DNA of 64,000 nt from an uncultured Candidatus Saccharibacteria bacterium (GTDB taxonomy: Bacteria; Patescibacteriota; Saccharimonadia; Saccharimonadales; Saccharimonadaceae): NCBI GenBank assembly GCA_964599775.1, contig CAZRGZ010000004.1, positions 7,373 to 71,372 of the forward strand, given 5' to 3'. Shown piece by piece: positions 22,267 to 64,000 of this stretch (its first letter is position 1; each line of letters opens with the position of its first letter). The position numbers and the translations under genes are program-made. The notes under the pieces are model-generated. The model saw only the letters and a program-made list of their open reading frames with translations. It was not told the origin of the DNA and searched no databases.

Positions 22267-22293
22267 GCGGACACTTCTTCGTGAAGTGTCCGC
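22267..22293 (-). terminator. Hairpin after high-GC islet A
   Basis: GCGGACACTTC-TTCGT-GAAGTGTCCGC, 11-bp perfect stem. Confidence 0.7.
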
Positions 22294-22332
22294 GGGTATC
22301 ACCACCTTTATGTGTGAGGGTGTTCTCTTGGA

Positions 22333-22767
22333 CTACGTAGCGCAGTAGTTCAGCCGGGGGTCGCTGTGGACCAGCCGAGAGAGGTCGTCCGGAGTGGGCC
22401 ATCTCAGCACAGGTTCGAAGTCGAACTCCTCACCGTTTGCGTCGATGCCTTCGTCGAGAACGAAGAGTTCAACGTCGCGCGTCCCAAGGCGCACGGTGCT
22501 GTCCTCGCCCTTCTTGCGTTCGAGCTCGAGCTGGCAGCCGGCCACGACCACCTGTGCTTCCAGCACAGATTCCGTCTTGGTTCTGCCGCGACTGCTGGTC
22601 GTCTCGTCGTCCCAGCCGACCTTCTTGAGGTCGTAGTTGAGGGCGTGGACGAGATCATCCCTAAAATCGTGCCGCTGGTTCTCGCGCTGCTGTGTGTTCC
22701 AGTAGAACACCGCGGCGGTCGCCAGGATAGCTGCAGAGATCACTGCAATAATACCGAGAAGTCTCAT
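22333..22767 (-). CDS. High-GC islet A: membrane-anchored protein of unknown function
   Basis: MRLLGIIAVISAAILATAAVFYW anchor followed by G/C-ending codons. All six frames are open (stacked antisense track ORFs). AGGAAG SD 6 nt upstream, and an AT-rich TTGAAA-17-TTTAAT promoter-like sequence lies further upstream. Confidence 0.65.
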   Translation of the reverse strand: MRLLGIIAVISAAILATAAVFYWNTQQRENQRHDFRDDLVHALNYDLKKVGWDDETTSSRGRTKTESVLEAQVVVAGCQLELERKKGEDSTVRLGTRDVELFVLDEGIDANGEEFDFEPVLRWPTPDDLSRLVHSDPRLNYCAT

Positions 22768-22862
22768 CTGGTCTTCCTGGGTTGGTGGTTGAACTACCAT
22801 ATTAAACCATACCCTGTGTAAATTTTCAAGAATGAAAACCCCCGCTGGCTGCGGGGCAGGCT

Positions 22863-23288
22863 TCATGTGGCTTCACCTCTCTTCTTAGTAAAGACATACT
22901 TCGAATTGCTCTTGAAGTTGAAAATGCCGAGTAAAGAGATGGTGGTGAGGTATACTGCCATGTAATGCCAGTTCAATAGGCCGACGAACACAGCAAAGCT
23001 CAGCATATTGAGGCTCGAACTCACCAACTTTGTCAGGTGGAAGCGGTACCACTGCTGCCTCCATGAACCACTTCTTTGCTTGCGCCAGGTGATATTGCGG
23101 TGTAGACAGAAGTGAATTTGTGCTCCTATTATCATCCTTACCATATTGGCGATTATAGGTACGAGCTGGCAGACGCTGACCAGTATCAGAAGTAGTAGGC
23201 TATTGATAAGGGTCATGGTGCAACCAACAAGTACAAACAGCAGCTGCTTCTTTGTCGGGTGGGCAAATCGCATGTCAAGCCTCTCCAC
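22863..23288 (-). CDS. GtrA-family membrane protein
   Basis: Four helices and the FVLVGC..LIN...HRNITW pattern typical of GtrA-like proteins. Confidence 0.6.
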   Translation of the reverse strand: MERLDMRFAHPTKKQLLFVLVGCTMTLINSLLLLILVSVCQLVPIIANMVRMIIGAQIHFCLHRNITWRKQRSGSWRQQWYRFHLTKLVSSSLNMLSFAVFVGLLNWHYMAVYLTTISLLGIFNFKSNSKYVFTKKRGEAT

Positions 23289-23405
23289 TTGTGAAGCTTC
23301 TGATAAATTTTAAAATAAAACTTTATATTCGTCAACTGATTGTTAATTCTCAAAATGCAGTGCTATACTAAGAATACTCAGTAGTTAAAAAAAGCGGAGG
23401 TAGCC

Positions 23406-23624
23406 ATGGGTGCTATGGAAAACATTAACTACGATCTTGTAAAATTGTTGCAAAACAAGTTGCATATCGTGTGGGAGCTTGAAAACAGCTATATTAACGA
23501 TGCCGAGGAGGCAAAGTGCCACAGCGTGCCAGCCCTCAAAGAGATATTAGAGGACGAGAGACGTCACGTAAAAATGCTCGCCGAAGAAATTCGCTTGCGT
23601 GCCGAAGCAGGTAAATTTGAATAA
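23406..23624 (+). CDS. Small helical protein, unknown function
   Basis: 72-aa ORF with a GGAGG SD and no recognised family. Confidence 0.45.
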   Translation: MGAMENINYDLVKLLQNKLHIVWELENSYINDAEEAKCHSVPALKEILEDERRHVKMLAEEIRLRAEAGKFE

Positions 23625-23719
23625 ATAGATCATGCCTAGTTGTAGTTGTAGGCTTTCTGTGTTAAAAATAATGTACCTTGTAACGAACAACATATAAAAT
23701 GTGTAAATAACGAGGTACT

Positions 23720-24769
23720 ATGATTGAAACAGAGCTTTTAGATATTGCAGAATCTCCGGGGAAGTTTGACTACCCATTGGCAGAGCTGCATGCGCACCTT
23801 TCGACGGCAATTCACCCGTCGGTGTATTGGCGTATGGCGCAAGCCCAAGGGTTTAAGCTGCCAAAAAATAACTATCGTGATTTTTACGATTATGTTTCAT
23901 TGTCAGTGGATAAAACCACCACCATGAAGGATTATTTCGACAATATTTACCATAAGCTCCTCAACCCTTTAAGCTCTGGTACTTTTGCAGTCGAACAGGC
24001 AACGTATGAAATTATGAGCGAGTCCTATCGGGTAAATAACGTAACGGTTATTGAACTTCGCACCAACCCAATGAAACACAACAACAACGATAAAATCGAC
24101 CTCGACCACATGATTATGGCTATGCTGCGCGGCATGGAACGTGCGTTGTTAGAATACCCCGAGCTTTCCGCGGGGCTTATTTTTTGTTTGGACCGCCAGT
24201 TTAGTTACAAAATGAATGAAATCATTGTAAAAAAGGCAATAAAATACAGCCGACGTGGTGTGGTAGGCATAGATGTGGCCAATTACGACACCGGTATGTT
24301 TGATTTTGCGCAGTGCGAAGGTTTATTCCAACGTGCACGCGATGCTGGCCTCAAAATTACGATTCACTCTGGCGAAACGGCCGATACCAATGATATGTGG
24401 GATGTAGTAAAGCATGTTCGCCCGGAGCGAATTGGCCACGGTATTAAAGCCGCCTACGACGAACCTTTAATGCAAGAGCTTGCCCAGCAGGGAATTGTAC
24501 TTGAAGTATGCCCGATTTCAAATATCGCGAATAGTAATGTGAGTGGGGTAGATGAGCTACGTCATATTTTTCGCGAATTCATCAACCATAATGTAAAGTT
24601 TTGTATAAATTCCGACTGGCCTGCCATGATAAAAGAGGCTAATTTGCGCCGCCAGCTGGAATTTCTCCGAATACATGAACTCCTGAGCGAAGATGAAATC
24701 CAGCAGTGTAATAAAATCGCCTTTGAAAGTACTTTTATACAAGGTAAAGGCATACAGCCCTACCTATAA
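23720..24769 (+). CDS. add: Adenosine/adenine deaminase family protein
   Basis: AELHAHLSTAI, ITIHSGE, RIGHGI, LEVCPISN, INSDWP metal-dependent deaminase motifs. Confidence 0.8.
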   Translation: MIETELLDIAESPGKFDYPLAELHAHLSTAIHPSVYWRMAQAQGFKLPKNNYRDFYDYVSLSVDKTTTMKDYFDNIYHKLLNPLSSGTFAVEQATYEIMSESYRVNNVTVIELRTNPMKHNNNDKIDLDHMIMAMLRGMERALLEYPELSAGLIFCLDRQFSYKMNEIIVKKAIKYSRRGVVGIDVANYDTGMFDFAQCEGLFQRARDAGLKITIHSGETADTNDMWDVVKHVRPERIGHGIKAAYDEPLMQELAQQGIVLEVCPISNIANSNVSGVDELRHIFREFINHNVKFCINSDWPAMIKEANLRRQLEFLRIHELLSEDEIQQCNKIAFESTFIQGKGIQPYL

Positions 24770-24784
24770 ATTAGGTCTATCCGA

Positions 24785-26356
24785 ATGGAAAAGTCTGCAT
24801 GGTACGAAACAGCGGTCTTCTACGAAATATTTGTGCGGAGCTTTTATGATAGTAATGGCGACGGCTGGGGTGATTTAGCTGGCGTCACGGCCAAGCTTGA
24901 TTACTTGCAGTGGTTGGGTGTGGACTGTATTTGGCTGCTGCCTTTTTTCGACTCACCACTGAGAGATGGCGGGTACGATGTGCGGGATTTTTACAAAATT
25001 CACCCGAAGTACGGTACGCTGGAGGATTTTAAAACGCTGATTCGCGAAGCACATGCTCGCGATATAAAGGTAATTGGCGATCTGGTACTGAACCATACGT
25101 CAGATGAGAATGTATGGTTTCAGGAAGCTCGTGATCCAAGCTCACCCAAACACGATTGGTACGTGTGGTCGGAAACGACAGATAAGTATACCAGGGCAAG
25201 GGTCATATTCACCGACTATGAAGATTCGAATTGGCAATGGGATGAAAAGGCGGGGAAATATTACTGGCATCGCTTCTTCCGTTTTCAGCCTGATCTGAAT
25301 TATGACAACCCGGAAGTCCAGCAAGAGATGATCAACGTTGCGAAGTATTGGCTGGAGCTTGGGCTGGACGGCTTTCGGCTCGACGCTGTGCCGCATCTTT
25401 ATGAACGCGAGGGGACAGACTGTGAAAACTTGCCGGAAACGCACGCATTTTTACGTAAGCTTCGGGCGGAGGTAAATAAAGTAAAACCAGGCGCAGTACT
25501 GCTCGCTGAAACAAACCAAACGCCCAAAAAGTTATTGCCGTATTTCAATACCGGCGATGAATGCAATATGGCCTTTAATTTCCCAGTGATGGTAGATATT
25601 TTTAATGCACTACGGAAAGCTGACGGTACGGACCTATTGAAGGCGGTCGCACAAACCCCGAAGTTGCCAAATGGCTGCCAGTGGGGACTCTTTTTACGGA
25701 GTCACGATGAACTATCGCCAAAACGCCATTTGCCAGATGGCGAGCATGACGCCTTTTTAGATTATTATGCCAGCGAGCCAGGTGCACGGTTTAAATCTGG
25801 CTTGCGGAGGCGACTGGCGCCTATGTTTGATTTTTCGCTAGAGAAACTTAAGCTTGCCTATACACTGCTACTTACGCTTCCGGGTACTCCTGTGCTATAT
25901 TACGGCGATGAATTAGGCATGGGCGACGACCTAACCCTTGAAGATCGTGACCCAGTGCGAACGCCAATGCCGTGGAGCGATGACAAGAACGCTGGATTCT
26001 CAAAAGCAGCACAATTGCCGCTACCTGTCGTTACTCATAGCGCCGGCGGCTACAAGACGGTTAATGTTGCTGCGTCTCAGCAAGACGAAGACTCGCTATT
26101 AGTATGGATGCGCAATATGCTACAACTTCGTAAGCAGCACGGTGCCCTACGGAGTGGAGGGTATAGAATAGTAAAAACACAATCACCGCATCTGGCAGTA
26201 TTTGAAAGGTATTCTGTTAAGGATTGCCTGCGTGTTATCTTAAATCTTGGTTCGGCTGAGTGTGATGTCAGTGAACATATGCTTGAGAGTATTGTTGTGT
26301 CATCAGGTCTTCAGGGTAATACTCTGAGCGGCAGCGGTTTTATCATCATGAAATAA
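24785..26356 (+). CDS. treS: GH13 alpha-amylase family enzyme, trehalose synthase-like
   Basis: WYETAVFYEIFVRSFYDSNGDGWGDLAG...LPFFDSPLRDGGYDVRDF, GFRLDAVPHL, LLAETN, FLRSHDEL. Confidence 0.75.
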   Translation: MEKSAWYETAVFYEIFVRSFYDSNGDGWGDLAGVTAKLDYLQWLGVDCIWLLPFFDSPLRDGGYDVRDFYKIHPKYGTLEDFKTLIREAHARDIKVIGDLVLNHTSDENVWFQEARDPSSPKHDWYVWSETTDKYTRARVIFTDYEDSNWQWDEKAGKYYWHRFFRFQPDLNYDNPEVQQEMINVAKYWLELGLDGFRLDAVPHLYEREGTDCENLPETHAFLRKLRAEVNKVKPGAVLLAETNQTPKKLLPYFNTGDECNMAFNFPVMVDIFNALRKADGTDLLKAVAQTPKLPNGCQWGLFLRSHDELSPKRHLPDGEHDAFLDYYASEPGARFKSGLRRRLAPMFDFSLEKLKLAYTLLLTLPGTPVLYYGDELGMGDDLTLEDRDPVRTPMPWSDDKNAGFSKAAQLPLPVVTHSAGGYKTVNVAASQQDEDSLLVWMRNMLQLRKQHGALRSGGYRIVKTQSPHLAVFERYSVKDCLRVILNLGSAECDVSEHMLESIVVSSGLQGNTLSGSGFIIMK

Positions 26357-26439
26357 TTGTTAATTTCAAGGCTTGCCCAGTATTGTAAAATACGTTACAA
26401 TTTTAACATAAGCAAAAAATACAATGCTGTGAGGGTAAA

Positions 26440-29400
26440 ATGGCTGGCGCTGCAAAAAGATCTTGTGAATTCTTAATAGCATTATTTAGTAGGCAGCGTA
26501 ATTCGATAGTATGGTGGCTTTCGGCAATCTCTATTGGGGCGATATTATCGATGAGCCTAGCGACAAATGTCCGCGCAGCAGACATGCCAGAAATCTCGAA
26601 GGAATTTGTGCCTGGTCAGGTATTTGAGCATGGCTATACGACAGTCGTGTTTACCATCACAAATGATGACACGCTCACCTCATGGAACTGGTCATTTACC
26701 GATAACCTGCCAAGCGGCGTTACGGTAGCCGACCCAGCAGCAGCGACAATCGATTGTACGAACGGCGATATTACGGCTGCTCCGGGCAGTGGTACCATTC
26801 AGGTGAGTGGCGATATGGAGGTAGGTCAGGCAGATTGTACCGCAAGCGTACGCGTCACCTCTGCAAGCGCTGGTGCGTATGAAAACTGTGAGGCTAACTT
26901 TACTGATCTCGTCAATATTTATGCGCCAGCAGATTGTGCAGAGCTCACCTGTGAAGCGTACGATGGCGACTTGCCAGACTTTTTTATAAACTGTGAATCT
27001 GCCGAAGCGCCAGAAGAATTTGATTTTTCTATTCAGGAGTCATGGTCAACTGATGCTATAACTCAAGCCTACCAAACACCGATGGTAGGTGATTTGTATG
27101 GCACGGGCGAGCCAGTAGCGGTTGTAGCGGGTAACAGAAACTCTTCTGGTAACGGTGGGGGCATCAGTGTATTTAATCGACGTGCCCAAGATCTGCATAT
27201 TATTCGCACAAGCGACGGTACCTTGCTTCAGACCATTGAAACGCCATTCTTTGCATGGTCTGGCCACGCAGTTATGGCAATAGCTGACTTAGATAATGAT
27301 GGTCAGGGTGAAATCGTCCTAAAAACCTGGCGAGGCGACGCTAACGACCCGGGTGTGCTTATAGCCTATCGTAACGACGGAACAGTAATGTGGACCTCTA
27401 ACGAGCGTTACGATTATGGCGACTCATCTGGCCGTGGTGGGGCAAGCATGGGTATAGCTGATTTTAACGGTGACGGCAACCCGGAGGTATACGTAGGCAA
27501 CCAAATATTCAATGGACAAACAGGTACTCGTTTAGTCGCAGCAGATACGAATGCGAGTGCAGGGTGTCCGTACCGTGCAACTTATGGTTGTTTCTGGAGC
27601 CAGGCGACAGCAGCTGATATGAATAACGATGGCCAGCTAGAGATTGTGGCTGGCGATACTATCTATGAAGTAAACCTCACTAACCTGACGGGCGAAGCGG
27701 GGAACAGTCTCACGGTACTGCAGCAAGCGGATGCTGGCGTTGATGGCGTAGGTGATGGCTATACGGCTGTTGCTGACATGAACCTTGACGGTTTCCCTGA
27801 TGTTATCGTCTCGCGAACTATCAACGCTCAAGGTTCCGCAACACGTCTTTATGTATGGGATGGACAGACTGGTGAAGTAATGGGTGTCTTATCTGGTATT
27901 GGCAATGGTACTGGTGCGCCAATGATTGGTGATATCGATAACGATGGTGCGCCAGAGATTGTCATTCAGAACGGTAATTTGCGTGCGTTTGATTTCGATT
28001 CAGTGACTGGTTTATCCCAGAAGTGGAGTATTAATACGAACGATGGCTCTGCGCAAACTTCTTTAGCAATGTTTGATTTCAATAACGACGGTAGGCAAGA
28101 GCTCGTGTATCGTGATGAAACCGACCTTCGTATTATTGACGGCAGCGGTGCCACAGCGACAAACTTGGCTACTTTCCCATGTATATCAAGCACGGGTAAC
28201 GAGATGCCGGTAATAGCCGACGTTGACGGCTCCCGCGAAGCGCGAATATTAGTATCATGTGGGGTAGGAAATGGACACAATAATGCTGCACTACGAGCTT
28301 TTGAAGCTGCCGGTGACCCATGGGCAAATACTCGCCCGGTTTGGAACCAGCAAGCGTACTTTGCGGCTCATGTTAACAATGACCTGACTATTCCGAGCGA
28401 GCAAGCACCACACTGGCAAGCCTTTGAAGATCCGCTCCAACAGTGTAGTGATGGCGTGAACCGCCCAATGAACTCATTCCAACAGCAAATGACCGATCTT
28501 GATCCAGATACTGGTTGTGAGGTTCGTTGTGTGCCACCGCTTGACTATGGCGATGCACCAGCAAGCTATGGAACGCTCCGCGAGAATGATGGTGCTCGCC
28601 ATCTTTCACCTTCATATGACCAAGGCTCTAATACGGCCTCGCTCATGCTTGGACAGTTGGTAGACACAGAGCGTGAAGGTTTCCCCGGCGCAGCGGCAGA
28701 TGGTGACGATACTGATAACATCAACGACGAAGACGGCGTCGCTGACCCAATCTATTTTGTCGCTGGCAGCCCCACTGCAGTTGAGGTATTTGTGACAAAC
28801 AATACCTCGCAGCCAGCCACGCTTGCTGGGTGGCTCGATAGCAACGTCAATGGTACCTTTGAGGCAGGCGAACGCGCACCGCTCGTCACCGTACCGGCAA
28901 ATACTTCAGATATCTACACCGTTACCTTCCCTGCTGGCACAGCAACAACAGACACCTTTGCTCGCTTCCGCGTCTTTGCTGGTGAAGTTGCGAACCCGCA
29001 GCCGACTGGCTTTGTTACGGGTGGTGAGGTGGAGGACTACCAAGCGCTGGCTGGGAGCGTTGAGTTCCGCAAGACAGTGAGCCCGCAAGATGTCACCGAA
29101 CTTGTCCCAGGCGAGACCTTTACTTACACGATTACGGTAGAGAATACCGGCAGCGCGCCACTGACTGGCCTCTCATTTACTGATGATCTCTCTGAAGTGA
29201 TCGATGACGCGACCTACCAGAATGACGTGACCGCTACTATTGGCACGGCAGTCTTTAACTCGCCAGATGAAATCAGCTGGTCGGGTGATCTCACGCCAGG
29301 GCAAACAGCGACCATAACCTATTCAGTCGAAGTGAACAGCCCGCTCTCCGGCGATGGCGTCATGATAAACGGCGTAGTTGGTAATGGTCCAGGCTCTAAC

Positions 29401-30447
29401 TGTACGGATAGCCCCGCTATTGACCCAGATTGTCGTACGCGATTACCATTGCCCGATGTTAGTAGCGAGAAAACCCTTGTAAGCCCTGATAGCCCAGGCG
29501 CAGGCGATGTCGTGACATACAGGTTTACGGTGACAAACAATAGCGATGAACCTGCGCCGAGTATAGTGGTCGCCGATGATCTGACTGGTGTCTTGGACGA
29601 CGCAGCGTATAACAATGACGCTTCAGTGGATGTTGGCGCTGTAACGTATAATGCAGTGATGGGCCGTCTTAATTGGATAGGCGATTTGGCCGCCAACGGC
29701 CAACCAGGCGATACGGCGACAATTACCTATACAGTCACAGTGAACGATGCAACAAGCTTGGGTGACGGCATTCTGCAAAATGCGCTTATCTCTACCGACT
29801 GTCCGAATCCGCCAATATTTGATCCAGGCAACCCTAATTTTGACCCATCTTGTGCCACTGTCGATCCTGTCAGTGCATGGCTGGCGAGCAAAACCATCAT
29901 TCCTGGCAACTTTGAGCCAGGCGGTACCATTAACTATCGTGTCGATATAGAAAACGTCGGTGCTGCAGATCTCTCTGGCGTGTCCGTGACCGACAACCTC
30001 GTTGATGTGATTGATGACGCAACCTACAATAATGACGTCGCGGCGACAGCTGGCAGCGCTACCTTCACACCGCCTGAAAGCATTCACTGGAATGGCGACC
30101 TTGCAGCCGGTGCTTCTGCTACCATGACGTACTCATTCACCATTAACGATCCTGAAAACCAAAGCAACCATATGGTGATAAATACCATTACCGGTTCGCC
30201 AAATTGCCCAAGCCCAGCCATTACTGACCCTGAAGATCCGGGCTTTAACGCAGATTGCGTTACCTTTACGCCACTGCAATACGAGAACGATACCGATGAC
30301 CCAGGCGTTCCTGGTGGTCCGCTAGACGGTTTATTGAGTGAAACTGGCCGCAATATCCTCACGTATATTCTTATCGCTGGAGCACTTGTTACTACGGGGC
30401 TTGCTGTCATCTTTCGTAAGCGGCTCATCGCACTTGCCCGCCGATAA
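26440..30447 (+). CDS. Giant surface protein: FG-GAP/VCBS repeats, GEVED-type segment, DUF11-like repeats, LSETG sorting signal
   Basis: Repeated D-x-N/D-x-D-G-x-x-E-I/V motifs (DLDNDGQGEIV, DFNGDGNPEVYV, DMNNDGQLEIV, DIDNDGAPEIV, DFNNDGRQELV) and GGEVEDYQ. There are four repeats of the type TYxxTVxNTGxxxLxGxxxxDDLxxVxDDAxYNND. LSETG (30334-30348) is followed by a TM helix and a basic tail. Confidence 0.85.
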   Translation: MAGAAKRSCEFLIALFSRQRNSIVWWLSAISIGAILSMSLATNVRAADMPEISKEFVPGQVFEHGYTTVVFTITNDDTLTSWNWSFTDNLPSGVTVADPAAATIDCTNGDITAAPGSGTIQVSGDMEVGQADCTASVRVTSASAGAYENCEANFTDLVNIYAPADCAELTCEAYDGDLPDFFINCESAEAPEEFDFSIQESWSTDAITQAYQTPMVGDLYGTGEPVAVVAGNRNSSGNGGGISVFNRRAQDLHIIRTSDGTLLQTIETPFFAWSGHAVMAIADLDNDGQGEIVLKTWRGDANDPGVLIAYRNDGTVMWTSNERYDYGDSSGRGGASMGIADFNGDGNPEVYVGNQIFNGQTGTRLVAADTNASAGCPYRATYGCFWSQATAADMNNDGQLEIVAGDTIYEVNLTNLTGEAGNSLTVLQQADAGVDGVGDGYTAVADMNLDGFPDVIVSRTINAQGSATRLYVWDGQTGEVMGVLSGIGNGTGAPMIGDIDNDGAPEIVIQNGNLRAFDFDSVTGLSQKWSINTNDGSAQTSLAMFDFNNDGRQELVYRDETDLRIIDGSGATATNLATFPCISSTGNEMPVIADVDGSREARILVSCGVGNGHNNAALRAFEAAGDPWANTRPVWNQQAYFAAHVNNDLTIPSEQAPHWQAFEDPLQQCSDGVNRPMNSFQQQMTDLDPDTGCEVRCVPPLDYGDAPASYGTLRENDGARHLSPSYDQGSNTASLMLGQLVDTEREGFPGAAADGDDTDNINDEDGVADPIYFVAGSPTAVEVFVTNNTSQPATLAGWLDSNVNGTFEAGERAPLVTVPANTSDIYTVTFPAGTATTDTFARFRVFAGEVANPQPTGFVTGGEVEDYQALAGSVEFRKTVSPQDVTELVPGETFTYTITVENTGSAPLTGLSFTDDLSEVIDDATYQNDVTATIGTAVFNSPDEISWSGDLTPGQTATITYSVEVNSPLSGDGVMINGVVGNGPGSNCTDSPAIDPDCRTRLPLPDVSSEKTLVSPDSPGAGDVVTYRFTVTNNSDEPAPSIVVADDLTGVLDDAAYNNDASVDVGAVTYNAVMGRLNWIGDLAANGQPGDTATITYTVTVNDATSLGDGILQNALISTDCPNPPIFDPGNPNFDPSCATVDPVSAWLASKTIIPGNFEPGGTINYRVDIENVGAADLSGVSVTDNLVDVIDDATYNNDVAATAGSATFTPPESIHWNGDLAAGASATMTYSFTINDPENQSNHMVINTITGSPNCPSPAITDPEDPGFNADCVTFTPLQYENDTDDPGVPGGPLDGLLSETGRNILTYILIAGALVTTGLAVIFRKRLIALARR

Positions 30448-30474
30448 TCGTATCTTTGCAGAAATAGCAAAAAA

Positions 30475-31284: not shown

Positions 31285-31323
31285 TCAAAAATGAGCGGGC
31301 GACCGCTCATTTTTCATAGTATG

Positions 31324-31821: not shown

Positions 31822-31893
31822 ATTAAAGTCAATGTATGTTGCTTCTTGCTGTATTTTTTGGGACAATAGGCATAAGCATAAACGGGGGAGGCA

Positions 31894-36150: not shown

Positions 36151-36336
36151 GTGAAGGACAAGTTCAGGATGATCGCAATGATCATCGGAGCAATCATCGT
36201 TGGCTTGCTACTACTCGGAGAGAGTCAGGTGGCGGCTGACTTCGCCAACGGCGTCATGGGGTTCATCGCGGACTTCTTCGCTGCACTGAAGGAGTTTGCA
36301 GGTGCGCTCAACCCGCCTGACATGCCGAACGAATGA
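36151..36336 (+). CDS. High-GC islet B: small membrane protein
   Basis: 61 aa (possibly starting at the internal MIAMIIGAIIVGLLLL). GC-rich codons. Preceded by an AT-rich TGTATAATG -10-like element. Confidence 0.5.
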   Translation: MKDKFRMIAMIIGAIIVGLLLLGESQVAADFANGVMGFIADFFAALKEFAGALNPPDMPNE

Positions 36337-36348
36337 TGGAATGACGCT

Positions 36349-36385
36349 CGGTGGCAGGGTATCCGAGTGGGTGCCCTGCCGCCCG
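36349..36385 (+). terminator. GC-rich hairpin after islet B
   Basis: GGCAGGG...CCCTGCC stem with flanking CGG/CCG, followed by a T-run at about 36394. Confidence 0.6.
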
Positions 36386-37263: not shown

Positions 37264-37426
37264 GGCAGTCTCCAACCTTCCTTGGCTTTTTTGACTGCTG
37301 AGGTAGTTTGCGAACAATAAGCGCGCTCTTTAGCGGAAAGAGAAAGGAGTTTTTACTTCTCGCTCGTTGACAACACGATGGACAACCAATTAGAGAAGGG
37401 GTGCTGTCGATGGCAAGCTCTACTTC

Positions 37427-37726
37427 GTGGCCAGTTCGTGCGATAGCGCGTCGTGCACCTCGGACTCGCCCGTGCGGCTTTACGCCGTGTCGATGGATGT
37501 CGGCATGGACTACCCGCGCGGTGCGCTGCAACCAACGCAAACGCCGACGCCAACGTGCCCCTCGCTCTTCTTGGTGGGAGTGCGAGGCTCGGGTGAGTCT
37601 GGCGATAGCGCCGGTGGCCTCGGTACTACCGTGGGCGATGTTCGTGACCGGCTCGCGCAGCAGTTCCCGCATATGAAGACGGCCGCGATCGACTACGCGG
37701 CTGTCGACATCGGGTACGGCAACTAG
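37427..37726 (+). pseudogene. High-GC islet C1: N-terminal fragment of a cutinase-like serine esterase
   Basis: CPSLFLVGVRGSGESGDSAGGLGTTVG...AAIDYAAV matches the start of actinobacterial cutinases (C-P-x-V-x-V-x-x-A-R-G-T/S-x-E). It stops before the GYSQG nucleophile and has no convincing signal peptide. Confidence 0.5.
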
Positions 37727-37796
37727 GGGCATACTCGTTTGCTATTACCGCATTATTATTATAAAATTCGTATGTCCCTAGCTGATAGGAGAAGCA

Positions 37797-38168
37797 ATGG
37801 CAACTGCCGAAGAAATACGCGAAGCAGTAGAGCTGGGAACGCGCCATCGGTTCGTCGAGCCTGACGGCATCATCGTTGCGTATGCGCGCCTCAACGATGG
37901 TGGCGTGCTCGCGTATGTCGGGGTCCCAAACTCTCATGAGCCCGTCGAGGGCCTAGAAGGAGCGAAGACAATGATGGCTGGCTACCGCCAGGTGGTCATC
38001 CTGAACCTCGACTCCTTGGCCGAACTCGAGCAGCCCGTGCTCGCAGAAGCAGTTCGCATAGACTGCAAAGGACCATGCAGTGCAGTGAGGGCGCACAAAA
38101 CACTACACGACTGTCTCTTCAATAGTGTTCGCGCCAAAACACTGCCCAAGCGGCGCCGCAGCTACTAG
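37797..38168 (+). CDS. High-GC islet C2: hypothetical protein
   Basis: 123 aa with G/C-ending codons. An AT-rich TTATAAAAT -10-like element and AGGAGAAGCA SD lie directly upstream. Confidence 0.55.
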   Translation: MATAEEIREAVELGTRHRFVEPDGIIVAYARLNDGGVLAYVGVPNSHEPVEGLEGAKTMMAGYRQVVILNLDSLAELEQPVLAEAVRIDCKGPCSAVRAHKTLHDCLFNSVRAKTLPKRRRSY

Positions 38169-38173
38169 TGGAT

Positions 38174-38207
38174 GTCCGGCCCTGCGGGTGTTTCCGTAGG
38201 GCCGGAC
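38174..38207 (+). terminator. GC-rich hairpin after islet C2
   Basis: GTCCGGCCCT-14 nt-AGGGCCGGAC, 10-bp perfect stem 6 nt after the stop. Confidence 0.7.
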
Positions 38208-38289
38208 GTGAGGTTTACCGAAGTACAAGCCTTGTGAGCGATTGCCTATTTGCTATACAATGCGTAAAAGAGAGCAGATAGGAGGTCAT

Positions 38290-42146: not shown

Positions 42147-42183
42147 GGGTTTATTCTAGTATAACTTTCGCTTAGGGTAGTGA

Positions 42184-42216
42184 CCCCTGCTTCCGCACTG
42201 GGTACGGAAGCAGGGG
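42184..42216 (-). terminator. GC-rich hairpin after islet D
   Basis: CCCCTGCTTCCG-9 nt-CGGAAGCAGGGG, 12-bp perfect stem. Confidence 0.75.
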
Positions 42217-42240
42217 TGTGAGGTGTCGACGAACTGTCGC

Positions 42241-42450
42241 CTACACGCTCTGGTTGGTGCCGGTCTCAGACGCGGCCTTGTCGGCGCCCCCCTGCTCGAC
42301 AGCGTCGCGCGCGGCGCTTGCCTGGCCGAGGGACTGACCGATCTCCTGGCCCATGTCGGCCAGCTGACCATCATTGAGTATGCCACCCGCCATGCTGGCG
42401 GCGGCACCGGCTCCGAGGAGGGCGTTCTCCGCCGTCTCCTTGATACCCAT
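42241..42450 (-). CDS. High-GC islet D: small Gly/Ala-rich protein
   Basis: MGIKETAENALLGAGAAASMAGG... 69 aa. GGGGGTGAAGG SD. GC-rich codons. Confidence 0.55.
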   Translation of the reverse strand: MGIKETAENALLGAGAAASMAGGILNDGQLADMGQEIGQSLGQASAARDAVEQGGADKAASETGTNQSV

Positions 42451-42942: not shown

Positions 42943-43293
42943 TCAGCACCTCCTACCGTAGAGGCCCTGGGCCTCCCACGGGATAGCGCTGAGGACGAAC
43001 GACACACATCTGTCCTCGTTGGCGTACTGGACGACGAACCATCGGTGAGCCATCATCACCAAGGCGAAGGCCGCCTGTGTAAGGCCCGTGACACCGTAGA
43101 CGTTGCCAGGGATGTTGGGCAGGATGTTGTGGTAAGCCCAGTCACGGGTCTCCTTCTTGCTGAGATGGAGGGCACATCGATGACCCTCGCATCTGATGTC
43201 GGCAGCCTCCGAAGCAGGCGCATGGGTGATGCCAATTCCCGCCAATAGAGCGATCAGAAGCCCGATCGCGGCGAGACGTCGAACGATTGACAC
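42943..43293 (-). CDS. High-GC islet E: small secreted 4-Cys protein
   Basis: Signal peptide MSIVRRLAAIGLLIALLAGIGITHAPASEA. GTG start with a GGAAGGGAAGAG SD. The mature ~86 aa carry 4 Cys. Confidence 0.6.
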   Translation of the reverse strand: MSIVRRLAAIGLLIALLAGIGITHAPASEAADIRCEGHRCALHLSKKETRDWAYHNILPNIPGNVYGVTGLTQAAFALVMMAHRWFVVQYANEDRCVSFVLSAIPWEAQGLYGRRC

Positions 43294-53837: not shown

Positions 53838-54410
53838 CTAGTCCTTATGGCAGATAAAGACCACCATACCACCCTCTTCAACAATGGCAACATCGACAAA
53901 TCTGGCACGGAGTTCATGTGACGTTGCTTCAAAGTCCACTGAGATCGGTCTCGCCTCATCAGCTCGCCGATGCACAGGAGTAATGACCACGAAAGTACCT
54001 TTTGGAGATAGAAGCTTATCGACACGATCTAAAAACACTGCGCGATCTTTAATAAATGCGTACACTAGCTTGCATGTAATAAGAGAGAAGGGCTGTATTG
54101 GCAGCTTGTCGATATCATCCTTCTCGATATCAAATTGAAGATAGTGCAACTCGTCGCTCCTCGTAGTAAGCGATTTTGCCAATCGTATAGCACTAAGTGA
54201 AATATCCACACCAACACACTCATAGCCACGATGATTAAGTTCCCTCGTGAGTTGACCGGTGCCACAACCGATATCTAAACAAATCTTCTTCAAGCTTTGA
54301 TCAGTATGTTCGAGCATAGTAGTTAACAAGCGGGAAGGGATCAGACGAAAATCTGCGTTTTTATCGTAGTAGGCGCTCCAGTGTTTGTCTAAATCGGTTT
54401 GCATATACAT
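53838..54410 (-). CDS. Class I SAM-dependent methyltransferase
   Basis: Motif I LDIGCGTGQLTRELNHRG, then CVGVDIS, 190 aa. Confidence 0.8.
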   Translation of the reverse strand: MYMQTDLDKHWSAYYDKNADFRLIPSRLLTTMLEHTDQSLKKICLDIGCGTGQLTRELNHRGYECVGVDISLSAIRLAKSLTTRSDELHYLQFDIEKDDIDKLPIQPFSLITCKLVYAFIKDRAVFLDRVDKLLSPKGTFVVITPVHRRADEARPISVDFEATSHELRARFVDVAIVEEGGMVVFICHKD

Positions 54411-54529
54411 TGATAATACTATAAATCCTCTAAAAAAGCGGAAAGCCCCCGTCCGCCACCACCCTGAGGGCAGCGGCGAACGGGGGTGACGCCTGTTCCG
54501 CCGATCTTCAGCGGTTCAGAACATCAGTG

Positions 54530-55036
54530 TCAGTGCTGGCAGCCGGAGTCGCCGTCCCCGCCACCGCCGCTGCACGAGTCGCCGCTGCAGTAGCCGCTGC
54601 AGTAGCTGCTGCAGTCGTGGCCCGTGTTGGCCCACAGCGGCTCGTCGACGATGAAGCCGTACTGCTTGAGCGCGGCGACCGTCCGCGCGATGTTGCCGGT
54701 GCCGTAGTCCACACCCTCCTCGTCGGAGGGCGCGTGGTGGATGAACTGACCCCCCACCCTCTGACAGAACGCCGCGTACTCGCGGGTGTAGAGGATGAAG
54801 GTGTGCCAGCCGATGTCCACCAGCGGCGAGGGCGAGTAGTGGCCGTTCGGGACCTTGGCGCAGAGCGCCAGGAAGCCGAGGGCCTGGTCCATGACGCGCT
54901 CGGCGAGCGGGCGCTCCATGTTCTCGTCCTTGACGATCCGGTTGACGAGCCTGTTCCACAGGCTCTCGTCGATGAGGCCCTTGTTGGTCGGCGCGGTGCC
55001 GACCGGGGTCTCGACGACGGTGGTTCCCACGGTCAT
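54530..55036 (-). CDS. High-GC islet F: GRDP/DUF1399-like protein (tentative) with Cys/Gly/Ser-rich tail
   Basis: Start trimmed to MTVGTTVV with a GAAGGGA SD. VDIGWHTFILYTREYAAFC resembles the glycine-rich-domain-protein-like core. The tail reads GHDCSSYCSGYCSGDSCSGGGGDGDSGCQH. Very high GC3. Confidence 0.5.
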   Translation of the reverse strand: MTVGTTVVETPVGTAPTNKGLIDESLWNRLVNRIVKDENMERPLAERVMDQALGFLALCAKVPNGHYSPSPLVDIGWHTFILYTREYAAFCQRVGGQFIHHAPSDEEGVDYGTGNIARTVAALKQYGFIVDEPLWANTGHDCSSYCSGYCSGDSCSGGGGDGDSGCQH

Positions 55037-56321: not shown

Positions 56322-56703
56322 GTTAAAGCTCGATACGGTATAATATAGTTATAGGAACTGGACAACTTGACCCAGCCATTACTCTTTTTAATAGAAGAGG
56401 TACGCTTAGGTTCTAGACTACGCAGGGAGAGCTAATGACCACTTGAGTTCTCTAAGTGGATATGCGTTCAAAAATAGTATTGTACTCTGTTGTATTGTGA
56501 ATCCGATAGCCATCATCGCATAAAATTTCAATAGCGCTTCGTGAGGTGCTCGACGACCAATGCTTTTGTGTCGCTCATGTTTTTACTGTAGACTTTTTTA
56601 TTACGTTTTGCAACTGTGTTAGTTGAAGTGTCCGGTAAGCTTGTAATTTATTTAAATTTATAGTATAATATATAAAGGCTATCCCGACAAAGAAGGAGCC
56701 AAA

Positions 56704-57330
56704 ATGGCACAGAAGTTGGTGGTTGGCTGGGTCGACAAGTTCTTCCCCGAGCGCGGATTCGGATTCGTGTCCACCTCCGAAGGGGATGTGTTCATCCACG
56801 TCGACAGATGCCGCGAATTCACCGGCACGCCAGAGAAGCCCGGCATCGGAAAAACCCACCTCGGTGAGGACTGGGTTAGCAAGAACCTCATCCCCGCCCG
56901 GGGGCATGGAGGGCGCCGGCACGACTACTCCTACGTAGTCATGAAGGTCGTCCCCGGTCAAAAAGGGCCGCGCGCTGCGGTCTGGGCGGTGATCCCCCGC
57001 CGTAGGACGGTCGAGGACATCATGACGTACGGCGGCCTCGACAGCTACCTCGGCAAGGGGGTCGCTGTGCTGGCCGACAAGCCGTCCTCGCCCGAGGATG
57101 TGTGGGGCGCGCTCGCGGAGTGGTCGCTGCTCGAGGACTGCCTCACGCTCGTGCTCGAAGAGCCGAGGAAGGTGGGTAATGTTCGTGTGAAAGGCCCCAT
57201 AACACGGGTAATCAACTTCACGAGCATGGGGGTCCGCGAGGACTGCCCCGAACGCCTCGAACTCCTGTTCCGCCGGGAGGACGCGCCGTCGCTGAAGGTG
57301 GTCCTCTGGCGGCGGGAGCCGCGCAGCTGA
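56704..57330 (+). CDS. High-GC islet G: cold-shock-domain-like N-terminus fused to an unknown 140-aa region
   Basis: VGWVDKFFPERGFGFVSTSEGDVFIHV resembles the CSD RNP motifs. AAGGAG SD and AT-rich TAGTATAAT directly upstream. The GC jump starts at the ATG. Confidence 0.6.
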   Translation: MAQKLVVGWVDKFFPERGFGFVSTSEGDVFIHVDRCREFTGTPEKPGIGKTHLGEDWVSKNLIPARGHGGRRHDYSYVVMKVVPGQKGPRAAVWAVIPRRRTVEDIMTYGGLDSYLGKGVAVLADKPSSPEDVWGALAEWSLLEDCLTLVLEEPRKVGNVRVKGPITRVINFTSMGVREDCPERLELLFRREDAPSLKVVLWRREPRS

Positions 57331-57341
57331 TACGGCTGCCA

Positions 57342-57375
57342 CCGGAGCCTCAGAGCATCGACTCTGGGGCTCCGG
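57342..57375 (+). terminator. GC-rich hairpin after islet G
   Basis: CCGGAGCCTCAGAG-CATCGA-CTCTGGGGCTCCGG, 14-bp stem with one G-U pair. Confidence 0.7.
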
Positions 57376-57540
57376 CCTCAGACTAAGCGCTTACGATGTG
57401 AGCTTTTAGTCTAAGGATTGACGAGTGCAATTTTCGTGCATGCGGCGCCTACAATATACGTTGTGAAGTCATTCACATTATGCGGTATAGACAAACTTAC
57501 TAACTATGTATAATAGAACTATAAGCATAAGGGGAATACG

Positions 57541-62574: not shown

Positions 62575-62592
62575 TCCAGGGTATACCCTGGA
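62575..62592. promoter_or_regulatory. Perfect 18-bp palindrome upstream of 62625..62918
   Basis: TCCAGGGTATACCCTGGA, 32 nt upstream of the ATG. Confidence 0.35.
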
Positions 62593-62624
62593 AAGAGTGA
62601 ATAAACATAAGCGAGGGAACTATT

Positions 62625-62918: not shown

Positions 62919-62937
62919 TAGTTAATATATAGCCTTG

Positions 62938-62967
62938 AAAAAGAGTCCCTTCAGGGGCTCTTTTTTG
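62938..62967 (+). terminator. Intrinsic terminator
   Basis: AAAAAGAGTCCC-TTCA-GGGGCTCTTTTTT. Confidence 0.75.
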
Positions 62968-62985
62968 GATACGATAGGACGCGCC

Positions 62986-63231
62986 TTAAATGGATAAATT
63001 TATAAAAATATCTCTGATGAAGTCTTTCACTTTCCCATCAAAAAATAATCTTATACCTAGGAGTAGTATTATAGTTCCTGGCAAAACTATATAGAATAAA
63101 GCTAAGATTTGTCCGCCTAAAAGCAAATATACTCCTAATCCGGTAAGGGCTAGACCAAAAAGTGATGTTGTTACAGCTAAAGCTATTTTCATTAAAAGTT
63201 GGTTTCTTAATTTACATATGTGAGAGATCAT
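62986..63231 (-). CDS. Small two-helix membrane protein
   Basis: 81 aa, hydrophobic. Overlaps the upstream gene by 20 nt. Confidence 0.45.
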   Translation of the reverse strand: MISHICKLRNQLLMKIALAVTTSLFGLALTGLGVYLLLGGQILALFYIVLPGTIILLLGIRLFFDGKVKDFIRDIFINLSI

Positions 63232-63751
63232 CCGCTGTAAGACTACCTGTTAGGAACTTTTCTGTGAGATCAATAGGTACACCATAGGCATAGAGAGGAA
63301 TTTGCTTTTGAGGAGGAAAATGCAATGTTGCACCGTGGCCTTTTATAAAGGCTTGAAACTCAGTATCGAGTTCACATTGTTCAAAAGCTGATGGGAGATT
63401 TGTGGTAGGCGGAAAAAGATTTGTTGAATGGTCAAACTGTACACCTTTTAGGTTGCTTTGAAAGGCAAAAAACATCCCATAGCTCTCATGTAAGTCAAGG
63501 TTTCTCGCGTCACATTTCCATAAGGACACAGGGAAAAACTTTTTACCTCGAAAACTAGCATTTGTTAGATTACAGTTATAAAAGCAAAGAAAACTTGACG
63601 GTATATCGCCAAGCTGGGTATCGGAAAGATCTAGGTCTTTTATATAAAATATTGACCCTTCTTGGCTGAAGGTATAGCGTATATAACGAAATGAATCCCA
63701 ATCTTGTGTTCGGAGAGCTTGGTATAGTTTTTGGGTCCATTCATTGTTCAT
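63212..63751 (-). CDS. Hypothetical protein, weakly pentapeptide-repeat-like
   Basis: DLSDTQL...CNLTNASFRG...CDARNLDLHES...SNLKGVQFD has loose A(D/N)LXX periodicity. Confidence 0.35.
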   Translation of the reverse strand: MNNEWTQKLYQALRTQDWDSFRYIRYTFSQEGSIFYIKDLDLSDTQLGDIPSSFLCFYNCNLTNASFRGKKFFPVSLWKCDARNLDLHESYGMFFAFQSNLKGVQFDHSTNLFPPTTNLPSAFEQCELDTEFQAFIKGHGATLHFPPQKQIPLYAYGVPIDLTEKFLTGSLTADDLSHM

Positions 63752-63776
63752 AATTTTAGTATACTATGTTGGGGGC

Positions 63777-63805
63777 GGGCCCTCCAGCGTTATGCTGGAG
63801 GGCCC
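63777..63805 (-). terminator. GC-rich hairpin after islet H
   Basis: GGGCCCTCCAGC-GTTAT-GCTGGAGGGCCC, 12-bp perfect stem. Confidence 0.7.
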
Positions 63806-63819
63806 CGAGGACGTGGGTA

Positions 63820-64000
63820 TTACTTCCAGTCCTTGTTCGCTTTGGTGTCAGCGAACGTGTCGTCCTCGTTGTAGACGGCGGTGGCCTTGTTGCCCTGGTC
63901 ATCCTGTTGAGACAGGAAGTAGCCCTGACCCTTGACGTTCGGGTCATTGGCGGCGTCGACCGTGTAGGTCGTGTCGCCCTCCTGCCACCGACCATCTTCG
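63820..64000 (-). CDS. High-GC islet H: 3' end of a gene running off the window (absent from the ORF track)
   Basis: Hand translation of the minus strand gives ...EDGRWQEGDTTYTVDAANDPNVKGQGYFLSQQDDQGNKATAVYNEDDTFADTKANKDWK-TAA. That is 59 open codons, almost all G/C-ending. The two track ORFs here are in other frames and are Arg/Pro-rich. Confidence 0.55.
   Translation of the reverse strand, partial: EDGRWQEGDTTYTVDAANDPNVKGQGYFLSQQDDQGNKATAVYNEDDTFADTKANKDWK

Follow-up and report, generated by a model that had tools for sequence, protein, structure and literature searches.

Background

In Lawrence and Ochman's account of amelioration, horizontally acquired islets are reportedly recognised by their atypical composition. 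The nine short GC-rich stretches considered here (islets A, B, C, D, E0, E, F, G and H), which occur in a 64-kb stretch of DNA analysed as a whole (the window), resemble acquired genomic islets: their GC content and codon usage are deviant, their edges are sharp, their taxonomic occurrence is patchy, and relatives lie on plasmids or integrative and conjugative elements (ICEs). They differ in being single small genes, each a unit with its terminator, nine of them within 42 kb of a genome that is itself very small, and in that neither an integrase nor a tRNA attachment site nor direct repeats came to light. Also, contrary to what amelioration predicts, F and G, at least, stay GC-rich at saturating divergence.

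Integron gene cassettes (a promoterless ORF plus an attC hairpin) share with the islets the succession of one short ORF and an imperfect palindrome, as well as an external promoter, but the islets form no array, come without intI and without an attC-like hairpin consensus, and lie scattered through ordinary intergenic regions. The islets are also reminiscent of the cargo of actinobacterial ICEs, AICEs and conjugative plasmids, given that two F genes and a methyltransferase (MT) lie amid Streptomyces mobility genes and that E-like genes occur on Rhodococcus plasmids. Unlike such cargo, the genes of the window lie outside any recognisable mobile element, and foreign composition is confined to the small ORF.

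Among Saccharibacteria, mammal-associated lineages have acquired the arginine deiminase system, an example of host-to-epibiont transfer (PMC8764695), to which the islets would be comparable as accessory genes gained laterally. TM7x, in turn, gave no strong indication of transfer from its Actinomyces host (PMC7427843), in contrast to the dense, compositional signal of the window. The signal of the F-MT module appears to run also towards a Streptomyces element.

Composition and codon usage

The assignment of the window to Saccharibacteria was supported, and its overall GC content is 47.4%. A scan of 200-nt segments, with the median plus 0.14 as cut-off, recovered the GC jumps that an earlier, sequence-only reading had listed at nine places between 22.3 and 64.0 kb, islet B (57-60% GC) falling just under the cut-off. 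In the 1-22 kb section the same scan flagged SHMT and a pilin-like gene and nothing else, and these two have native codon style. The GC3 of the islets ranges from 0.64 to 0.94, compared with a median of 0.47 (95th percentile 0.70) for 83 crude ORFs of the window. In frame, it amounts to 0.71 in A, 0.73 in B, 0.78 in C, 0.65 in D (the weakest codon signature of the nine), 0.82 in E0, 0.73 in E, 0.94 in F, 0.83 in G and about 0.68-0.83 in H.

In the islets both C3 and G3 are raised and A3 and T3 depleted, down to 0.01 and 0.02, respectively, in F. In native genes of high GC3, C3 alone is raised: SHMT has a C3 of 0.42 and a G3 of 0.21, and retains GTA, CTA and CCA codons, while the pilin-like genes (10112-11297) have a C3 of 0.50-0.56 and a G3 of 0.14. 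GC1 and GC2, and hence amino acid composition, are likewise shifted in the islets. Judged from the sequence, the islet signature is foreign, of the high-GC, mutational-bias, actinobacterial type, and distinct from native codon bias. The high density of islets noted earlier was borne out by comparison with 78 further loci, each 5 kb or longer and almost all of them Saccharibacteria FolD neighbourhoods (1.56 per 10 kb in the window versus a median of 0).

Edges, hairpins and junctions

Apart from islet A, the start of which is ambiguous, the islets have their upstream GC change-point between 48 nt before and 14 nt after the start codon, in agreement with the earlier placement of the jump at or near the start. 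The downstream change-point lies 50-92 nt past the stop, outside the hairpin. Perfect or near-perfect stems of 11-19 bp occur 3' of A, B, D, E0, F, G and H. Folding of the 90 nt after the stop gave minimum free energies of -27.8 to -59.7 kcal/mol for these seven islets, against a native median of -15.3 kcal/mol, and only 2 of 47 native genes reached -27 kcal/mol. A hairpin near the stop had been ascribed to all islets except E; this holds for seven of the nine, C being, like E, devoid of a convincing hairpin behind its ORF. The hairpins mostly lack a U-tract. Hairpins of this kind are common among actinobacterial terminators.

Sigma-70-like boxes were found 5' of islets G, D and C. That the AT-rich promoters are resident does not follow, since a similar AT-rich upstream region and 5' UTR precede the F genes of a Streptomyces ICE-like locus.

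The uniform ORF-plus-hairpin layout, together with the orientation of all nine islets, which is that of the respective downstream gene, could suggest a site-specific system, whether integron-like or mobile in another way, of which the islets would be the cassettes and the hairpin the recombination site. We regard this as very improbable: the islets are single and scattered rather than arrayed, their hairpin sequences are mutually unrelated, comparison of boundaries and hairpins yielded no common k-mer of 8 nt or longer, and the 41 neighbouring ORFs scanned gave no match to integrase or transposase families.

Metagenome-assembled genomes can hold chimeras, and the islets could in principle be actinobacterial reads wrongly joined into a Saccharibacteria contig during assembly or binning. 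Logan contigs tend to break near islets, one (L168) ending within C, as such an artefact might produce. Nevertheless, assemblies made independently from at least eight runs show the same junctions, with an identity of 98.3-100%. Both junctions of islet A are spanned in six other samples (Logan/ENA contigs, 98.3-100% identical), both junctions of B and the left junction of C are 100% identical in L168, and both junctions of F are spanned by a contig from another run (L084) with 2 SNPs in 969 bp. Similar junctions between F and the MT are also present in many unrelated assemblies. Chimeric assembly is unlikely at the junctions tested (A, B, the left edge of C, and F), and as a general explanation it is improbable in the extreme. 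Between strains, SNPs occur in patches, which suggests frequent recombination.

Islets A to E and H

Islet A (22267..22866, minus strand) encodes a TM-anchored protein of 155-177 aa. Its ORF spans 22333-22866 from the start chosen by the gene caller, an ATG that overlaps the GtrA stop as ATGA; an alternative ATG lies at 22800, and the hairpin (22267-22293) has a perfect 11-bp stem (-19 kcal/mol). Homologues among 5.8e9 proteins were restricted to its own species cluster, a result that gives the proposed outside donor no support.

Islet B (36151..36383, plus strand) comprises an ORF for a small membrane protein of 55-61 aa (36151-36336) and a hairpin with a 15-bp stem (36350-36383, -30 kcal/mol). 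In islet C (37392..37726, plus strand) the coding-like frame has its stop at 37726 and its earliest in-frame start, a GTG, at 37427, while an SD-plus-ATG at 37410 is out of frame with it. Given this upstream SD-plus-ATG in a different frame, C may be a gene remnant and looks degraded. Searches of C against Pfam, NCBIfam, PDB and plasmids gave no match, and its description as an N-terminal cutinase fragment found no support in the first three. Islet D (37797..38209, plus strand) holds an ORF of 123 aa (37797-38168) preceded by promoter-like TTGCTA-17-TAAAAT boxes (37739-37767) and followed by a 17-bp stem (38172-38209, -34 kcal/mol); no plasmid or viral relatives were found.

Islet E0 (42183..42450, minus strand) encodes a Gly/Ala-rich peptide of 69 aa (42241-42450), with a hairpin of 16-bp stem (42183-42217, -31 kcal/mol). 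Islet E (42943..43293, minus strand) encodes a 116-aa protein with four Cys and an N-terminal hydrophobic segment resembling a signal peptide. Distant relatives of E (32-39% identity) are hypothetical proteins on four Rhodococcus plasmids, mobilizable or conjugative, where they lie near conjugation genes. Islet H (63777..64000, minus strand) covers the 3' part of an ORF that leaves the window (stop at 63821-63823; C3 0.52, G3 0.31; 60% GC in the last 200 nt of the window), with a 12-bp stem at 63777-63806 (-28 kcal/mol). Plasmid searches with E0 and H were without match.

The sequence-only reading amounted to nine independent and recent captures from the current actinobacterial host, placed behind resident promoters and not yet ameliorated. 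The sharp edges, the extreme GC3 of F, G and E0, the actinobacterial style of the hairpins and the confinement of A to this species are all in line with such a history, as is the fact that 80 FolD-neighbourhood loci from other Saccharibacteria species and three F loci hold no islet homologue other than F itself in the latter three. Taken individually, A, B, C, E0 and H may have arisen in this way. As an account of all nine islets we consider it unlikely: no near-identical donor gene was found, F and G, described below, are shared with divergent genomes, and the AT-rich upstream region of F, found also in Streptomyces, is not simply resident.

Islet F and its methyltransferase partner

Islet F (54446..55036, minus strand) consists of an ORF (54530-55036) encoding a PF27765 protein (UCP032817-like, 'glycine-rich domain') with a Cys/Ser/Gly tail, and a hairpin with a 19-bp stem (54446-54486, -39 kcal/mol). 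Its 268 homologues include relatives in Streptomyces, Mycobacterium and Saccharimonadales, the family occurs on 172 plasmid records, and the most similar actinobacterial proteins are 73-76% identical to it. The actinobacterial links proposed earlier are thereby supported for F, as they are for E by the Rhodococcus plasmids.

Next to F lies a gene for a SAM-dependent methyltransferase of native composition (53838..54410, minus strand; Pfam Methyltransf_11/25/31; GC3 0.43). F is found directly upstream of the same MT in about 20 distinct, divergent loci, including named Saccharimonadales MAGs, each time with its own hairpin and elevated GC3. In low- and mid-GC contexts the GC3 of F is 0.51-0.97, usually 0.2-0.55 above that of the MT (0.25-0.55). 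Homologues of like composition in the same slot of relatives are what the earlier reading had itself named as evidence against capture. A Streptomyces locus (L171) carries, together, a resolvase (serine recombinase), DUF3846, F1, F2, MT, a TrwB-like ATPase and Replic_Relax; the low-GC outlier there is the MT, and its F genes have AT-rich upstream regions and a 5' UTR resembling that in the window. Since F occupies the same slot by the MT in about 20 divergent genomes and in this ICE-like locus, it is, as far as comparison of loci can tell, no private recent capture.

The two partners differ in their synonymous sites. Four-fold-site identity of F between the window and L002 is 0.80 (codon-usage-preserving null 0.50, z 5.3), and between the window and L098 it is 0.67 (z 4.0), while the MT is at the null in both pairs, its synonymous sites being saturated between loci. 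In the pair L106-L108, F is 81% and MT 38% identical. Distant F pairs, too, have a synonymous identity (about 0.6) that exceeds a codon-shuffled null (z 2.0-2.3), a baseline excess which could reflect site-specific codon constraint and not recency.

Islet G and the persistence of high GC3

Islet G (56704..57416, plus strand) encodes a 208-aa protein (56704-57330) in which a cold-shock domain is fused to an unknown beta domain. In its AlphaFold model (pLDDT 93.5) the N-terminal domain matches Csp structures, confirming the cold-shock fold recognised earlier. Promoter-like TTGTAA-17-TATAAT boxes lie at 56641-56669, and two hairpins follow the ORF (57342-57375 and 57376-57416, the second with a T-run after it); this double 3' element is conserved in three other loci (L170, L181 and L085). 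The family has 42 members. All five inspectable loci are in mid-GC genomes, with a GC3 of 0.62-0.87 that exceeds the flanks in each, and among the four compared the synonymous sites are saturated and GC3 is elevated at every locus. No actinobacterial relative of G was detected, so that composition and nothing else would argue for an actinobacterial origin. The family members are not GARP-rich; their mid-GC genomes and an amino acid composition that is not actinobacterial-looking tell against the donor once proposed for G.

A high GC3 of F and G in every context, even between saturated lineages, raises the question of long-resident genes whose GC-richness is actively maintained, either by selection at the nucleic acid level (for stability or structure of the mRNA, for escape from A/U-specific nucleases, or for certain codons at certain positions) or, in genes prone to recombination, by GC-biased gene conversion. 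The synonymous codons shared by distant F pairs, the contrast between high F and low MT repeated in the Streptomyces element, and the patchy SNPs with the recombination they suggest would all fit. Yet enrichment in both G3 and C3 over a whole ORF with such sharp edges has no known mechanism, native genes of the highly expressed type in the window are biased in C3 only, the shift extends to GC1, GC2 and amino acid composition, and F declines to a GC3 of 0.51-0.64 in some lineages, as amelioration would predict. On balance, this explanation seems doubtful.

Origin of the islets

We lean, with a confidence slightly above even, towards the islets being single-gene ORF-plus-terminator xenologs of mixed ages, drawn from a pool of genes shared with the mobile elements of actinobacteria. 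Each is an ORF lying between genes of a Saccharimonadales chromosome, probably transcribed from an AT-rich sigma-70-type promoter and having the composition of high-GC Actinomycetota; seven of the nine carry a GC-rich hairpin of their own. F and E, at least, belong to families borne by actinobacterial plasmids or ICE-like elements. The nine would not be equivalent, recent and private captures but would differ in age. F would be one of the two genes of an old module, in which the hairpin separates it from the SAM-methyltransferase and which many divergent genomes and a Streptomyces mobile element have in common, its alleles being apparently younger than the adjoining MT and uncoupled from it. 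G represents a family encountered in mid-GC genomes only, GC-enriched despite saturating divergence and retaining its own 3' RNA element. A is species-restricted and C apparently degraded. The claim of repeated capture from a high-GC, actinobacterial donor is sustained in part, by the codon signature and the relatives of F and E; the evidence on F and G weakens it, and A lends it no support.

The genes may have entered when high-GC DNA of actinobacterial hosts, or of the mobile elements of those hosts, was taken up and then recombined, with continuing exchange or replacement by the same route in the case of F. The promoter-proximal AT-rich part may travel with the unit, or may be kept because the RNA polymerase of the epibiont uses it. 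For none of the islets searched was a donor sequence found near enough to prove recent transfer. The N-terminal variable part of F is GC-rich as well, which is more than internal gene conversion by itself would produce.

That GC3 should stay high in lineages whose synonymous sites are saturated (the four G loci compared, and F in L104, L106 and L108) fits poorly with neutral amelioration, and would need repeated replacement at single loci or selection on composition. At least two of the islets, F and G, appear to be long-standing, widely shared, GC-rich genes and not fresh one-off captures.

Composition and codon usage of the islets

The window has a GC content of 47.4% and carries housekeeping genes for FolD, SHMT, MurB and a D-Ala-D-Ala carboxypeptidase, together with pilin-like proteins and tRNAs, the latter being all that an Rfam search of the whole window recovered. 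The best relatives of FolD among 185,579 species representatives belong nearly all to Candidatus Saccharibacteria/Saccharimonadales MAGs, at 50-71% identity, so the source organism is a Saccharibacterium that has no close sequenced species representative. The nearest ones found in a scan of FolD-centred contigs, directed at the surroundings of B, C, D, E0 and E, are ~70% identical in FolD and have no neighbouring genes in common with the window. The same species is present in several public metagenomes.

A sliding GC scan recovered the nine short high-GC single-ORF islets (A, B, C, D, E0, E, F, G and H), B falling slightly under the 200-nt cut-off, and in the first 22 kb of the window flagged only SHMT and one pilin-like gene. 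As the sequence-only reading had anticipated, GC3 is elevated in the islet ORFs (0.64-0.94, versus a median of 0.47 for 83 crude ORFs). In the frame with coding periodicity the values are 0.71 for A, 0.73 for B, 0.78 for C, 0.65 for D, 0.82 for E0, 0.73 for E, 0.94 for F and 0.83 for G, and H is also high. Both G3 and C3 are raised in the islets and A3 and T3 are nearly eliminated, whereas in SHMT and the pilin-like genes, the native genes of elevated GC3, only C3 goes up and the A-ending codons are kept. The islet pattern is therefore that of a high-GC mutational regime and not the codon bias of the genome itself. By the compositional definition the islets classify as horizontally acquired genes, with D, the weakest case, being borderline.

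The two pilin-like genes (10112-11297, minus strand), which have prepilin-type N-termini, show a GC3 of 0.65-0.70 with C3 at 0.50-0.56 and G3 at 0.14; this looks like a native expression-linked codon bias, against which the islets can usefully be compared. Mid-GC sequence is likewise interrupted by high-GC islets (GC3 of ~0.8-0.9) on other Saccharibacteria-type contigs (L002 at 8186-8782 and 3173-3417, L015 at 1-1560, L053 at 13035-15421, L014 at 19801-20467 and L018 at 17593-18376). None of these is a homologue of an islet of the window, and they suggest that the phenomenon is wider, if usually sparser than in the window.

Junctions and boundaries

Junctions of four of the islets recur on independent contigs assembled from other sequencing runs. 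Contig L084 (SRR29457731) spans both junctions of F with 2 SNPs in 969 bp, L168 (SRR7082976) is 100% identical across 1,466 bp taking in B and the left edge of C, and A is found in the same GtrA context in six ENA/Logan contigs at 98.3-100% identity. Where tested, that is for A, B, the left edge of C and F, an assembly artefact is thus unlikely. Conspecific contigs (L173/L174) compared with window 16591-32790 differ by 1-1.7% overall, and their SNPs are strongly clustered (a 500-bp bin near 25.2 kb, for example, holds 52 and the adjacent bins none), a pattern expected from frequent homologous recombination between strains. The SNP density of islet A between strains is below that of its flanks, a contrast that is not interpretable given such patchy diversity.

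Except for A, which has an ambiguous start, the GC content steps up at a point from 48 nt upstream to 14 nt downstream of the start codon and drops again 50-92 nt beyond the stop. Perfect or near-perfect GC-rich stems of 11-19 bp follow seven of the nine islets (A, B, D, E0, F, G and H), and the 90 nt after their stops fold with energies of -27.8 to -59.7 kcal/mol. For native genes the median over the same length is -15.3, and no more than 2 of 47 attain -27 kcal/mol. A hairpin had been described behind every islet except E; this holds for those seven, and C, like E, has no convincing hairpin downstream. A scan for canonical terminators, which needs a T run directly after the stem, reported the second hairpin of G and, at F, a T-tailed stem of just 5 bp at the base of its long hairpin. 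It did not pick up the long stems downstream of A, B, D, E0, G (first hairpin) and H, although A and B have partial T-runs a few bases past the stem. Sigma-70 promoter-like boxes occur upstream of G, D and C. All nine islets share orientation with the next downstream gene, which is weakly unusual in a compact genome.

No motif of at least 8 nt is common to the islets in their boundaries and hairpins, and a scan of 41 window ORFs gave no match to any integrase or transposase family. Integron cassettes are defined by attC sites with conserved R/L boxes, in an array next to intI and attI; this interpretation was rejected, there being no attC-like motif common to the hairpins or boundaries and no integrase among the 41 ORFs, and the units being dispersed. 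A phage origin was likewise set aside, as no islet protein matched a PHROG and no relatives of A or D were found in IMG/VR.

Islets A to E and H

Relatives of E, a 4-Cys protein (42943-43293), were found within the collections searched only on four Rhodococcus plasmids, two of them mobilizable or conjugative, as annotated hypothetical proteins of 32-39% identity. In the window (46581-48352) a ThiF-family gene and a GNAT/FeeM-like gene lie within 4-5 kb of the E-like gene, and on one of the Rhodococcus plasmids (L172, NZ_CP034155) the E-like gene is likewise near a ThiF gene (37% identical to that of the window, E 6e-45) and a GNAT/FeeM-like gene. The neighbourhood is missing on two other Rhodococcus plasmids with E homologues, so that an E-GNAT-ThiF module was not retained, and the proximity may be a coincidence.

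Among 5.8 billion proteins, the TM-anchored protein A had no match outside the cluster of its own species. The start assigned to it by gene callers is an ATG overlapping the stop codon of a native GtrA-family gene (ATGA, 22863-22866), and from this start its first ~22 codons have native composition and the rest is high-GC; A is possibly a foreign fragment fused to a native translational start. The identification of C as a cutinase fragment was abandoned: there is no Pfam or NCBIfam match at E<0.1, no PDB sequence match and no plasmid tblastn match, and the ORF ends ahead of any nucleophile motif. C may be a gene remnant, since its SD and ATG lie in a different frame from the coding-like one. 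Limited searches (profile-library, plasmid or viral-contig) gave no matches for B, D, E0 and H, and protein searches of plasmid records returned nothing for A, C, D, G, E0 or H.

Islet G and its 3' element

The N-terminal part of G (56704-57330, plus strand) is a cold-shock domain (OB-fold CSD with an RNP1-like GFGF motif), as had been proposed. The Pfam CSD match has an E of 1e-3, under the gathering score, and in a confident AlphaFold model (pLDDT 93.5) the N-terminal ~95 residues align with cold-shock proteins, with a Foldseek TM of about 0.75 to Csp structures, normalised to the target. For the C-terminal beta domain the PDB gave no match. An exhaustive HMMER search recovered 42 representative relatives of ~200-230 aa, characterized by the motifs GWV..F...KGFGF and VFFH.S.CR.V.GTPE.P. 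The G of the window has a 99% identical cluster in the protein collection; exact-sequence look-ups of window G and of P0168 found no record. The amino-acid composition of the family appears not to be actinobacterial, given its GARP/FYMINK ratio of 0.9-2.2.

All five G loci inspected (window, L085, L169, L170 and L181) lie in mid-GC genomes, with no synteny among them, and in every one the GC3 of G (0.62-0.87) exceeds that of the flanks. Synonymous sites are saturated among the four loci compared. GC-richness in mid-GC genomes at synonymous saturation contradicts, for G, the proposal that the nine islets are recent, private captures.

The 3' region of G forms a double hairpin (window 57342-57416, plus strand; L170 6676-6775; L181 728-822) that is conserved in these three loci and partially in L085 (10670-10750). 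The first hairpin shows compensatory changes (CCGGAGCC/GGCTCCGG, CCGAAGTC/GGCTTCGG and CCAGAGTT/GGCTCTGG) and the second (CCTCAGACTAAGCG..GAGCTTTTAG) is nearly invariant, even though the G proteins are just 41-46% identical and, for the three relatives compared, synonymous sites are saturated. No further copy of the double hairpin lies in the 1.7 Mb of loci retrieved, and Rfam has no match to it, yielding only chance-level miRNA hits in this region.

Islet F and the adjacent methyltransferase

F (54530-55036, minus strand) belongs to PF27765 (UCP032817-like, "glycine-rich domain-containing protein"). Of its 268 homologues the best is 79% identical, and every one of those listed carries a precomputed PF27765 domain; relatives occur on 172 plasmid records. 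Phylogenetically they fall both in Actinomycetota (among them Streptomyces, Mycobacterium, Mycobacteroides and Kibdelosporangium) and, at the same locus, in several Candidatus Saccharimonadales MAGs, with 71-79% identity. Homologues conserve both the core motif SPSPLVDIGWHTFILYT and the Cys-rich tail.

At ~20 distinct loci, F immediately precedes, in the same orientation, a homologue of the SAM-methyltransferase MT (53838-54410 in the window, minus strand), across a gap of 26-171 bp that mostly holds a GC hairpin. These loci include one in a named Saccharimonadales MAG (L001), one on a Logan contig (L002) and many on metagenome contigs. In low- and mid-GC contexts the GC3 of F is 0.51-0.97, usually 0.2-0.55 above that of MT (0.25-0.55), and on three high-GC contigs both genes are GC-rich. 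F is thus not a recent, un-ameliorated capture absent from this locus in relatives: its synteny with the orthologous methyltransferase, combined with elevated GC3, fails the test set for nine private captures.

Four-fold-site identity of F between the window and L002 is 0.80, versus 0.50±0.06 in a codon-usage-preserving shuffle (z 5.3), and 0.67 between the window and L098 (z 4.0). In both pairs the four-fold sites of MT are at the null and its amino-acid identity is just 47-52%. The similarities of the two genes are also uncoupled in L106-L108, with F 81% identical and MT 38%. F and MT therefore have had different histories. Some position-specific codon constraint may also act on F, since even distant F pairs show a modest four-fold-site excess of ~0.6 (z about 2).

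Neutral amelioration should long since have erased the GC-richness of F and G. The two genes may have been repeatedly replaced as a whole, or converted, by high-GC DNA taken up from outside; for F this is favoured by the synonymous-site contrast, and the DNA-uptake lifestyle of Saccharibacteria makes it plausible. Alternatively, selection may act on their nucleic-acid composition.

The module also occurs, as a tandem F1-F2-MT at 3262-5264, on a 205-kb contig (L171) of Streptomyces sp. bgisy034 (GCA_965343715.1), between genes for a serine recombinase, a DUF3846 protein, a TrwB-like ATPase and a Replic_Relax protein, an ICE-like setting. Here MT is a low-GC outlier, with a GC3 of 0.56 among genes mostly at 0.75-0.90. 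Both F1 and F2 have AT-rich upstream regions, and the 5' UTR of F2 closely resembles that of the window F (AGTG[G]AAGGGAA..CGGT.ATGACCGTGG). The AT-rich promoter, previously described as resident-looking, would thus be part of the F unit wherever it is present. Evidently the F-MT module has been transferred between a Saccharimonadales-type genome and a mobile element of Streptomyces, and the composition of MT suggests that at least this gene travelled towards Streptomyces.

The C-terminal tail of F (DCSSYCSG[YCSG]DSCSGGGGDGDSGCQH; 54533-54620, minus strand; alignment A2) hardly varies among the homologues from Saccharimonadales, Streptomyces and Mycobacteroides, and is partly duplicated in the window copy. 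A radical SAM gene lies near a Streptomyces plasmid copy of F (L179). The tail, the adjacent MT and this radical SAM gene are together reminiscent of a modified-peptide system.

Discussion

The islets are a real feature of this genome, and they are probably horizontally acquired islets, with a twist, in that F and G are still GC-rich. The simplest account that accommodates all the observations is that they are xenologs, each an ORF mostly with a putative terminator, of actinobacterial compositional type and of mixed ages, drawn from a gene pool common to Saccharimonadales and actinobacterial plasmids/ICEs.

Saccharibacteria are obligate epibionts of Actinomycetota, naturally competent and reliant on imported nucleotides. 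Among the mechanisms that could operate in such a setting, we raise as a speculative and rather improbable one that a subset of genes is kept permanently host-like in composition. High-GC actinobacterial DNA would be continually imported, and residents resembling genes of the host or of its mobile elements would be overwritten again and again, by whole-gene replacement or gene conversion. Modules of the F-MT type would thus stay compositional mosaics for very long, and would flow back into Streptomyces ICEs. If this overwriting takes place, the islets would record the hosts of uncultured Saccharimonadales and would reveal a two-way gene traffic between epibiont and host.

Full-text literature searches found neither dense high-GC single-gene islets nor the F-MT mosaic described. 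In TM7x no strong indication was obtained of genes transferred from its Actinomyces host (PMC7427843). Lateral gain of the arginine deiminase system is documented for mammal-associated Saccharibacteria (PMC8764695). A host prophage binds TM7x with limited infection (PMC13578794), which is one conceivable route for high-GC DNA.

Across deeply diverged genomes, the F-MT module keeps one gene at a GC3 of 0.85-0.97 and its partner at genome composition, and this mosaic offers a clean test case of amelioration versus recurrent replacement versus selection on foreign-gene composition. That 42 kb should hold nine single-gene inserts of actinobacterial style challenges the view, published for TM7x, that signs of host-derived genes are few (PMC7427843), and one of the islet genes, F, belongs to a module that is also present in a Streptomyces ICE-like element. 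Together, the islets and the shared module are concrete candidates for host-linked functions, and the islets may provide a sequence-based route to inferring the hosts of uncultured soil lineages.
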